From NCBI RefSeq assembly GCF_030145145.1, contig NZ_JAQYWD010000004.1, positions 116,622 to 140,621 on the forward strand: a stretch of DNA of 24,000 bases. Direction: 5' to 3'. The notes under the pieces were generated by a model that was not told where the DNA came from, ran no database searches, and worked only from the letters and a program-made list of their open reading frames with translations. Shown here one piece after another: positions 7,810-8,100 of the stretch (position 1 is the stretch's first letter; each line of letters begins with the position of its first letter). This stretch comes from Desulfobacula sp. GTDB lineage: Bacteria > Desulfobacterota > Desulfobacteria > Desulfobacterales > Desulfobacteraceae. The translations under genes and the position numbers were made by a program.

Positions 7810-8100
7810 ATGAAAGACATCAGATATCTGGATGACATATCAAGCCTGGTGCTGACAGATGAAAAATGCGTCGGGTGCGGCCTGTGTATCGAAGTCTGCC
7901 CCCACGGCGTGTTTGAAATGCAACACAACAAAGCCCGTATTGTTGATTTCAATGCCTGCATGGAATGTGGTGCCTGTGTGAACAATTGTCCTTCAGGCGC
8001 CCTCTCCGTCAGTCCCGGGGTGGGCTGAGCCGCCTATATTATCCAGGTCTGGATAAAAGGCAAAGAAAACGCATCCTGTGGCACGGGCGGGTGCTGCTGA
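7810..8100 (+). CDS. hgcB: HgcB, the 2x[4Fe-4S] ferredoxin partner of HgcA. The in-frame TGA at 8026-8028 (codon 73) is interpreted as selenocysteine, giving a 96-residue product that ends in CC.
   Basis: The ATG at 7810 lies 7 nt after AAGGAG. The product begins MKDIRYL...CVGCGLCIEVCP...CMECGACVNNCP...SVSPGVG-TGA and carries two CX2CX2CX3CP clusters. Reading through the TGA in the same frame gives AAYIIQVWIKGKENASCGTGGCC and then TGA at 8098-8100. This recreates the PGVG[C]AAYII segment and the C-terminal vicinal Cys pair that I recall as conserved in HgcB. The ORF track stops at 8028. A SECIS-like hairpin follows (next feature). Confidence 0.72.
8040..8055 (+). promoter_or_regulatory. Candidate bacterial SECIS hairpin (TATCCA-GGTC-TGGATA) downstream of the hgcB TGA
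   Basis: A perfect 6-bp stem, TATCCA (8040-8045) with TGGATA (8050-8055), closes a GGTC loop at 8046-8049. The hairpin begins 12 nt after the TGA. As I recall it, the E. coli fdhF minimal SECIS begins 11 nt after UGA and has the apical loop GGUC. A possible lower stem pairs GCCT (8032-8035) with AGGC (8058-8061). Confidence 0.55.

Follow-up and report, generated by a model that had tools for sequence, protein, structure and literature searches.

Probable selenocysteine at residue 73 of HgcB

The occurrence of selenocysteine (Sec) in HgcB, the ferredoxin partner of the corrinoid methyltransferase subunit HgcA, has been described before. According to Haft & Gwadz (bioRxiv 2022, 10.1101/2022.07.06.499078; J Bacteriol 2023), 17 of 266 HgcB sequences carry Sec at residue 73; they recognised this residue as the ninth invariant Cys position of the protein, located about 25 residues from the C-terminus, and updated the PGAP reference data. 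They also found many HgcA proteins with Sec in an N-terminal PCUGP motif, including HgcA of Pseudodesulfovibrio mercurii ND132. A paper on HgcAB published in PNAS in 2024 mentions Sec-HgcB as well, and in a review from 2026, HgcB (NF040864, motif GVGU, WP_250697400.1) appears among the prokaryotic selenoproteins. The preprint of Haft & Gwadz gives no selenocysteine insertion sequence (SECIS) for hgcB, its SECIS passages leaving hgcB aside, and names no taxon for the Sec forms. Here, we analyse an hgcB gene of this type and the hairpin behind its in-frame UGA codon in a 24,000-nucleotide stretch of DNA from Desulfobacula sp. (GCF_030145145.1, contig NZ_JAQYWD010000004.1), which is referred to as the window and whose positions are used throughout.

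The full-length hgcB gene extends from 7810 to 8100 on the forward strand, directly downstream of hgcA, and comprises 96 codons, including the putative Sec codon 73 and the codons for a Cys pair at residues 95–96, followed by TGA. The start codon is an ATG at 7810 with the sequence AGGAG just 5' of it. Codon 73 is a TGA (8026–8028, forward strand), which stands immediately behind the residues SPGVG in the column of the essential Cys73 and would be read as Sec. The same frame then remains open for 23 codons (AAYIIQVWIKGKENASCGTGGCC) until a second TGA at 8098–8100 (forward strand), which we take as the true stop and which is not followed by a SECIS element. The reading of the frame in the original prediction, which had been made from the nucleotide sequence without database searches, was thus confirmed in every detail.

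The deduced protein contains eight Cys residues in two CxxCxxCxxxCP motifs typical of [4Fe-4S] clusters (C20-C23-C26-C30-P31 and C50-C53-C56-C60-P61). The numbering of these residues and of residue 73 is identical to that of ND132 HgcB (Cooper et al. 2020), which resembles the window protein also in its C-terminal vicinal Cys pair and in being encoded next to hgcA. In ND132, the exchange C73A abolishes methylation, and the C94A/C95A variant loses 95% of the activity (Cooper et al. 2020). The two systems differ in that the window HgcB would carry Sec in place of Cys73 and has its Cys pair at residues 95–96 instead of 94–95, and in that the window HgcA lacks any N-terminal Cys, whereas that of ND132 carries the PCUGP motif. 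Therefore, the earlier statement that the read-through product reproduces both functional features of ND132 HgcB at the same residue numbers applies to residue 73, but not to the Cys pair.

When the UGA was read through, the protein matched the HgcB equivalog NF040864 (cutoff 99 bits) over the entire profile (positions 1–93 of 93) with 124.9 bits if U was entered as C and 120.8 bits if entered as X, whereas the truncated 72-residue form reached 102.3 bits and covered positions 1–68 only. The tail thus adds profile positions 69–93, and the suggestion that the downstream codons resemble those of other HgcB tails proved correct. This tail (residues 74–96, encoded at 8029–8097 on the forward strand) consists of the start of a helical extension (AAYIIQVWIKGK) and a flexible part containing Cys91 and Cys95-Cys96. 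An alignment of full-length homologues over the segment PGVG-C-A-x-YIIQ showed Cys in the TGA column in 115 of 116 proteins, so the UGA indeed occupies the position of the conserved Cys, as had been proposed. The anticipated truncation by standard gene calling is also real: the public protein set contains the window gene as an unnamed product of 72 residues (P0003), and further HgcB calls of 72 residues from JGI and ENA metagenomes derive from DNA with the same TGA and a conserved tail ending in CC. We considered a reassignment of TGA in the genetic code, but rejected it because TGA is the ordinary stop of 8 of the 20 open reading frames (ORFs) in the window and also terminates hgcB itself. 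A terminator-like hairpin with a T-run is located 3' of the second TGA of hgcB, not of the first.

With UGA at codon 73, the GVGU context and the terminal Cys-Cys, the window gene differs in nothing essential from the Sec-HgcB of Haft & Gwadz. Sec-HgcB is already known, and the window therefore adds a further, mis-annotated instance and not a discovery; the novelty implied by the original prediction had been anticipated by their publications of 2022 and 2023. The known range of the protein is different, with 17 of 266 sequences in their count compared to at least 109 species-level genomes in ours.

A hairpin downstream of the UGA codon

The predicted hairpin TATCCA-GGTC-TGGATA was found at 8040–8055, starting with the 12th nucleotide after the TGA. 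An extra U-A pair lengthens the stem to seven base pairs (UUAUCCA-GGUC-UGGAUAA, 8039–8056). We annotate the putative SECIS element at 8032–8061 on the forward strand, with the core stem formed by 8039–8045 and 8050–8056 and the apical loop GGUC at 8046–8049. Folding of the RNA yielded a minimum free energy of −12.6 kcal/mol (z = −2.4 to −2.9; equalled by 2 of 200 shuffled sequences), and alifold returned the same 7-bp stem from 109 sequences. The consensus for bacterial SECIS elements given in a 2026 review (PMC13188914) comprises a loop of 3–9 nucleotides with G at its first two positions, a stem of 4–16 bp, a distance of 16–37 nucleotides from UGA to loop and a minimum free energy of at most −7.5 kcal/mol. 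The hgcB hairpin lies within all of these limits, with a 4-nucleotide loop starting with GG, a 7-bp stem, a distance of 17 nucleotides and the energy given above, which bears out the fold expected beforehand. No SECIS family of Rfam matched the hairpin at the gathering threshold or at E ≤ 10, and a scan for other genes with this type of hairpin after an in-frame TGA returned a single match, probably by chance.

The SECIS of E. coli fdhF, with which the original prediction had compared the hairpin, was verified over 46 of 46 nucleotides in the fdhF genes of 5419 of 5426 E. coli genomes and folds with the loop GGUC at nucleotides 22–25. Its stem-loop is reported to comprise nucleotides 15–31, 11 nucleotides from the UGA, with U17, G23 and U24 being critical (PMC8659212), and the features named in that comparison (loop GGUC, 11 nucleotides after UGA) agree with both the sequence and its fold. 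Both elements are hairpins inside the coding region which present a GGUC loop with the SelB-contacting G and U; they have the octamer CAGGUCUG in common, and the hgcB stem starts at the 11th nucleotide after UGA if the extra U-A pair is included (12th without it). In contrast to fdhF, hgcB contains a perfect 7-bp stem without the bulged U17 and a different lower stem, and its loop is situated at nucleotides 21–24 instead of 22–25, i.e., one nucleotide closer to the UGA. The hgcB element would be fdhF-like in its mode of working but, with the missing bulge and the shifted loop, not a copy; its cognate SelB would be a Desulfobacteraceae protein, unlike the SelB of E. coli.

Related genes were collected by scanning GTDB with one genome per species for the pattern PGVG-TGA-A-x-YIIQ, which left free the third bases of codons Ile77, Ile78 and Gln79 as well as all of codon 82; the source genome of the window is not among the representatives. 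The scan detected TGA at the same hgcB column in 109 species-representative genomes, to which two metagenome contigs are added, giving 111 other sequences. As a control, a metagenome scan with the same pattern, but TGY in place of TGA, yielded 120 Cys-type loci. The stem codons of the TGA-type genes turned out to be practically invariant, with ATT for Ile77 and ATC for Ile78 in 110 of 110 genes each, and CAG for Gln79 and ATA for Ile82 in 109 of 110 each; the sole exception at codon 82, GTA, still pairs via a U-G wobble. Neighbouring codons of the same genes, such as those for Ala74, Lys83 and Gly84, vary freely. Accordingly, the proportion of synonymous differences (pS) is 0.064 in the stem codons and ten times higher (0.68) in the flanking codons of the tail. 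The Cys-type genes use mixed codons at all four positions: ATC, ATT and ATA occur 66, 44 and 4 times at codon 77, 63, 47 and 4 times at codon 78, and 62, 24 and 8 times at codon 82, while codon 79 is CAG in 90 and CAA in 24 genes.

All four stem codons together (ATT ATC CAG..ATA) are present in 110 of 112 TGA genes, but only in 2 of 123 Cys-type genes, and the base pair 15–30 forms in all 109 Sec-type genes compared to 9 of 108 Cys-type genes. The types also differ at residue 80, which is Val in Sec-type genes, creating the loop GGUC, and Thr or Ser in Cys-type genes, where the loop is GACC. A full stem and a GGU loop do not occur together in any Cys-type gene, and the rare Cys-type genes with Val80 have not kept the stem and fold differently. 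A weaker lower stem (8032–8035 with 8058–8061) was rejected as a Sec-specific element, since its pairs form at a similar frequency in Cys-type genes. Judged from these codon statistics, the hairpin at 8039–8056 is under selection at the RNA level and specific to TGA-type genes, and the hgcB SECIS itself seems not to have been described before.

Five of the seven stem pairs (AUCCA/UGGAU) are dictated by the peptide I-Q-x-W-I and are, therefore, also present in the Cys-type genes (L112–L231). The Sec-type element differs from this only by two additional pairs, obtained by the choice of ATT and ATA, and by the exchange of Thr or Ser80 to Val, which creates the GU of the loop. Because the peptide enforces most of the stem, the hairpin appears pre-adapted, with a short evolutionary path to a SECIS element.

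Conservation of the UGA codon and alternative readings

All TGA-type loci possess an open tail behind the TGA, which ends in CC in 102 of the 111 sequences. Outside of the hairpin, the ratio of nonsynonymous to synonymous differences (pN/pS) of the tail is 0.095 at a pS of 0.68, compared to 0.24 at a pS of 0.70 for the part of hgcB preceding the TGA (109 genes in either case), from which we conclude that the tail is translated and strongly constrained. The final stop of the gene is TGA in 83, TAA in 19 and TAG in 9 of the relatives. The recurrence of TGA, tail and hairpin in 111 further sequences, which the original prediction had proposed to look for, is far above chance. A few Sec-type tails (L041, L080, L040, L078 and L106) lack the terminal CC: in L041, the GGA codon behind ...ENASC is replaced by TGA, while the last residues are CG in L040 and S in both L078 and L106. 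These cases could represent assembly errors, decay or, for L041, a second recoded UGA. In one Desulfotignum-like hgcB (L232:255–542; JGI 3300040796, P0001), codon 73 is TTA for Leu, one base away from TGA, and the codons of the SECIS hairpin are complete. Either Sec was mutated to Leu very recently, in which case the protein should be inactive, or the base call is wrong.

All named hosts of Sec-type hgcB belong to the Desulfobacterales, mostly to the Desulfobacteraceae (Desulfobacula, Desulfotignum, Desulfobacter, Desulfamplus and Desulfobacterium), and include three cultured strains, Desulfocicer vacuolatum DSM 3385, Desulfamplus magnetovallimortis and Desulfospira joergensenii DSM 10085. The closest relatives of the window at the DNA level are a JGI metagenome contig (L001) with about 90% nucleotide identity and Desulfobacula sp. 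co234_bin15 (L021) with about 79%. A neighbour-joining tree of the adjacent HgcA proteins placed 83 of 83 Sec-type loci in one pure clade with a single change of state, and this clade persisted when those HgcA proteins were added that accompany the Cys-type HgcB proteins of highest similarity. We rejected the idea that these nearest Cys-type proteins are reversions inside the Sec clade, because P0002 and P0012 fall outside and are accompanied by canonical HgcA with PCCGP. A single Desulfobacteraceae clade for all Sec-type loci seems not to have been described before.

The locus carries the signature of a recoding event, composed of a conserved UGA, a selected tail and a Sec-specific hairpin, and these three lines of evidence agree with the interpretation first offered. 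Codon 73 of hgcB very probably acts as a SECIS-directed Sec codon, as judged from sequence comparison. Several points weigh against this reading. Because the stem is invariant, it shows no compensatory covariation; synonymous-site statistics and the Cys-type control set were used in its place. As there is only one clade, the invariance of the stem could partly reflect shared ancestry, against which the near-saturated synonymous sites flanking it in the same genes argue. The bulged U (U17) needed by E. coli SelB is missing from the hgcB hairpin, and no demonstration of Sec-HgcB by labelling or mass spectrometry was found in the literature. Neither the 24-kb window nor the roughly 235 compared loci, which are small, contain selA, selB, selD or a tRNA-Sec gene; the only tRNA gene of the window is one for tRNA-Thr, and the Pfam annotation of the remaining window ORFs revealed no obvious further selenoprotein gene. 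A Desulfobacula-like genome with complete selA/B/C/D has been reported by Kivenson et al. (2021), and by its name, the clade member L105 (isolate CORE_19_RING_Bin_00001) appears to be this genome. The maintenance of UGA and SECIS in more than 100 species is hard to explain without Sec machinery, and the source genome of the window presumably contains selABCD.

The alternative which survives best is a recoding of the UGA by the same SECIS and SelB to Cys, either always or when selenium is scarce, with the help of a tRNA(ReC)-type tRNA (SelC*). Such tRNAs decode UGA as Cys in front of a downstream SECIS and occur in some Desulfobacterota (Vargas-Rodriguez 2018, as cited in PMC13582414), and nothing in the window separates the insertion of Sec from that of Cys. 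However, tRNA(ReC) is present only in a minority of the surveyed genomes (about 17% of Sec-type and 13% of Cys-type; PMC13582414), and none was seen in the compared loci, which represent a tiny part of each genome. Moreover, TGY would be the cheaper way to encode Cys, yet more than 100 species of the clade have retained the TGA together with its hairpin. We consider this alternative improbable and expect that Sec rather than Cys would be inserted.

It is even a little less probable that the TGA is a real stop and the product a 72-residue ferredoxin without Cys73 and the CC tail; the frame behind the TGA would then be a relic of a truncated, inactive or altered gene. Gene callers deliver exactly this product (P0003, P0047, P0096), which scores just above the HgcB cutoff, and some of it is probably made anyway by competition with release factor 2. 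However, a relic would show neither the low pN/pS of the tail at near-saturated synonymous divergence, nor the CC ending of most sequences, nor a hairpin with frozen synonymous sites. In addition, the terminator comes after the second stop, and the ND132 variants at residue 73 and at the Cys pair are completely or largely inactive. Finally, a sequencing or assembly error for TGC or TGT, for which a single base would suffice and for which the TTA codon of L232 shows that single-base variants or errors do occur at codon 73, can practically be dismissed, because 111 sequences, assembled independently in many projects and with three cultured isolates among them, share this TGA, which co-occurs with Sec-specific hairpin codons not found in Cys-type genes.

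If codon 73 specifies Sec, SelB loaded with Sec-tRNA(Sec) would bind the hairpin as the ribosome reaches the UGA and deliver Sec in competition with release factor 2, while the second TGA, which lacks a hairpin, would terminate translation. The product would be a 96-residue HgcB which contains both [4Fe-4S] motifs and the usual C-terminal Cys-Cys, and in which a selenol takes the place of the essential thiol of Cys73 where the C-terminal helix begins. HgcB reduces the corrinoid of HgcA. Selenolates are deprotonated at neutral pH, are better nucleophiles and leaving groups than thiolates and bind Hg very strongly. Because of these properties, a ligand-exchange step at residue 73 would be expected to be faster or tighter, and Sec may thereby confer a chemical advantage; it may also hamper the release of the product. 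Published models propose that Hg(II) and CH3Hg+ reach and leave the cofactor by way of residue 73 and the CC tail, and residue 73, at the start of the C-terminal helix, is proposed to take over CH3Hg+ from the flexible CC tail (Cooper et al. 2020).

HgcA partners and neighbouring genes

The hgcA gene of the window (6620–7786, forward strand) codes for a corrinoid methyltransferase subunit of 388 residues, which matches the equivalog NF040863 with 424.5 bits (cutoff 275) and contains the cap-helix motif NVWCAAGK. Its start at the ATG at 6620 is backed by alignment with L001 (alternative ATG at 6584). The N-terminal extension preceding EKPGY (6620–6760) contains no Cys and, thus, neither a CC nor a CU motif. 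An in-frame UGA of the PCUGP type 5' of hgcA was not found, the frame being occupied by the gene of an HMA-domain protein and ordinary stops.

The lack of a CC or CU motif turned out to be a common trait of the Sec-type loci. Located about 12 residues ahead of E(K/R)PGY, this motif occurs in 64 of 72 HgcA proteins partnered with Cys-type HgcB, compared to 9 of 79 partnered with Sec-type HgcB (Fisher p = 1.5e-23). Within the 30 residues before PGY, the Cys-type partners show CC in 61 and CU in 3 cases (n = 72), while among the Sec-type partners (n = 79), 9 have CC, 4 have CxC, 43 have a lone Cys, 23 lack Cys altogether and none has CU. If the whole N-terminal extension is regarded, all 44 Cys-type proteins contain paired Cys residues or the CU equivalent (CC 41, CU 2, CxC 1), compared to 24 of 72 Sec-type proteins (CC 12, CxC 12, CU 0). 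The HgcA proteins which retain CC are dispersed over the Sec clade, suggesting that the motif was lost repeatedly. Relative to the PCUGP selenoproteins of Haft & Gwadz, the Sec-type loci represent the same two-gene system with Sec at a presumed Hg-handling Cys, but in the other subunit and at another site, and HgcA proteins with CU were seen at Cys-type loci only.

Directly 5' of hgcA, the window contains a gene for a CopZ-like HMA-domain metallochaperone with the motif GMSCGHC (6400–6615, forward strand; Pfam HMA 58 bits, with CopZ-type NCBIfam matches). Homologues of this gene precede hgcA in the same orientation at 26 Sec-type and at none of the Cys-type loci, either adjacent to hgcA or about 3.3 kb away, and direct adjacency was recorded for 15 of 81 Sec-type compared to 0 of 56 Cys-type loci (p = 3.8e-4). 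In L037, the one inspected locus with a distant homologue, an ArsR-type gene stands directly 5' of hgcA. Selenocysteine as a soft-metal ligand is also known from the UxxU metal-binding selenoproteins (NF041115) and the MerT/CopZ fusion selenoproteins (NF045683); the window HMA protein carries CxxC instead of Sec and matches both families weakly, below their cutoffs. The loss of the CC/CU motif of HgcA and the frequent gain of an upstream HMA gene in the Sec clade seem not to have been described before.

Within the samples, the association of Sec73 with the loss of the HgcA motif and the gain of the HMA gene is solid. Because all Sec-type loci form one clade, these are traits of a lineage, which count as one evolutionary event and not as independent replicates. 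We tentatively entertain the rather doubtful scenario that Sec73-HgcB marks one HgcAB lineage of the Desulfobacteraceae with a rewired transfer of mercury, in which the CC/CU motif of HgcA, found in nearly all Cys-type systems, became dispensable once HgcB had acquired the selenol and decayed repeatedly, while an HMA gene was recruited to the side of hgcA in part of the members, the window among them. A functional compensation between Sec73 and the thiol pair of HgcA is speculative. If it were true, residue 73 of HgcB and the N-terminal thiol pair of HgcA would act in the same transfer step of Hg(II) or CH3Hg+, and the thiol pair would have given way to a single strong selenolate ligand, which may or may not be assisted by a separate chaperone.

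The gene upstream of the HMA gene (4427–6403) codes for a hybrid sensor kinase with PAS, HisKA, HATPase and receiver domains, and its stop overlaps the HMA start by 4 nucleotides. The same hybrid kinase gene directly abuts hgcA in L001, whereas the nearest Cys-type loci show a gene for an ArsR-type HTH regulator before hgcA. It may be that hgcAB of this lineage receives its regulatory input from another source. Between hgcB and a convergent acyl-CoA synthetase gene, a long inverted repeat and hairpins resembling terminators (8113–8208, no strand assigned) mark where the transcription unit ends behind full-length hgcB. Terminator-like sites followed by T-runs were located at 8113–8126 on the forward and at 8208–8188 on the reverse strand, and the repeat (GCTTGGGGTCAGGCTTT ... 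AAAGCCTGACCCCGTCAAACTT, within 8101–8208) probably acts as a bidirectional terminator; weak miRNA-like Rfam matches to it were dismissed as spurious. Further downstream, a multihaem cytochrome c gene (15274–16542) is followed by an ORF without Pfam match (16560–17264). The latter overlaps by 119 nucleotides with the listed ORF of a cytochrome b561-type gene (17146–18069), which may be due to a start called too early.

The formation of methylmercury by HgcAB is a major problem for environmental health. The value added by this analysis lies in a defined SECIS, in the assignment of the Sec-type genes to one clade with cultured strains and in the link to the loss of the HgcA CC/CU motif and the gain of the HMA gene. 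Because gene calling cuts these hgcB genes to 72 residues, surveys based on hgcAB are affected. A natural Sec73 would offer a spectroscopic and chemical handle on the protein via 77Se nuclear magnetic resonance, extended X-ray absorption fine structure at Se and Hg, and selenium-dependent activity, and it may provide a mechanistic link between the availability of selenium and mercury methylation in marine Desulfobacteraceae.

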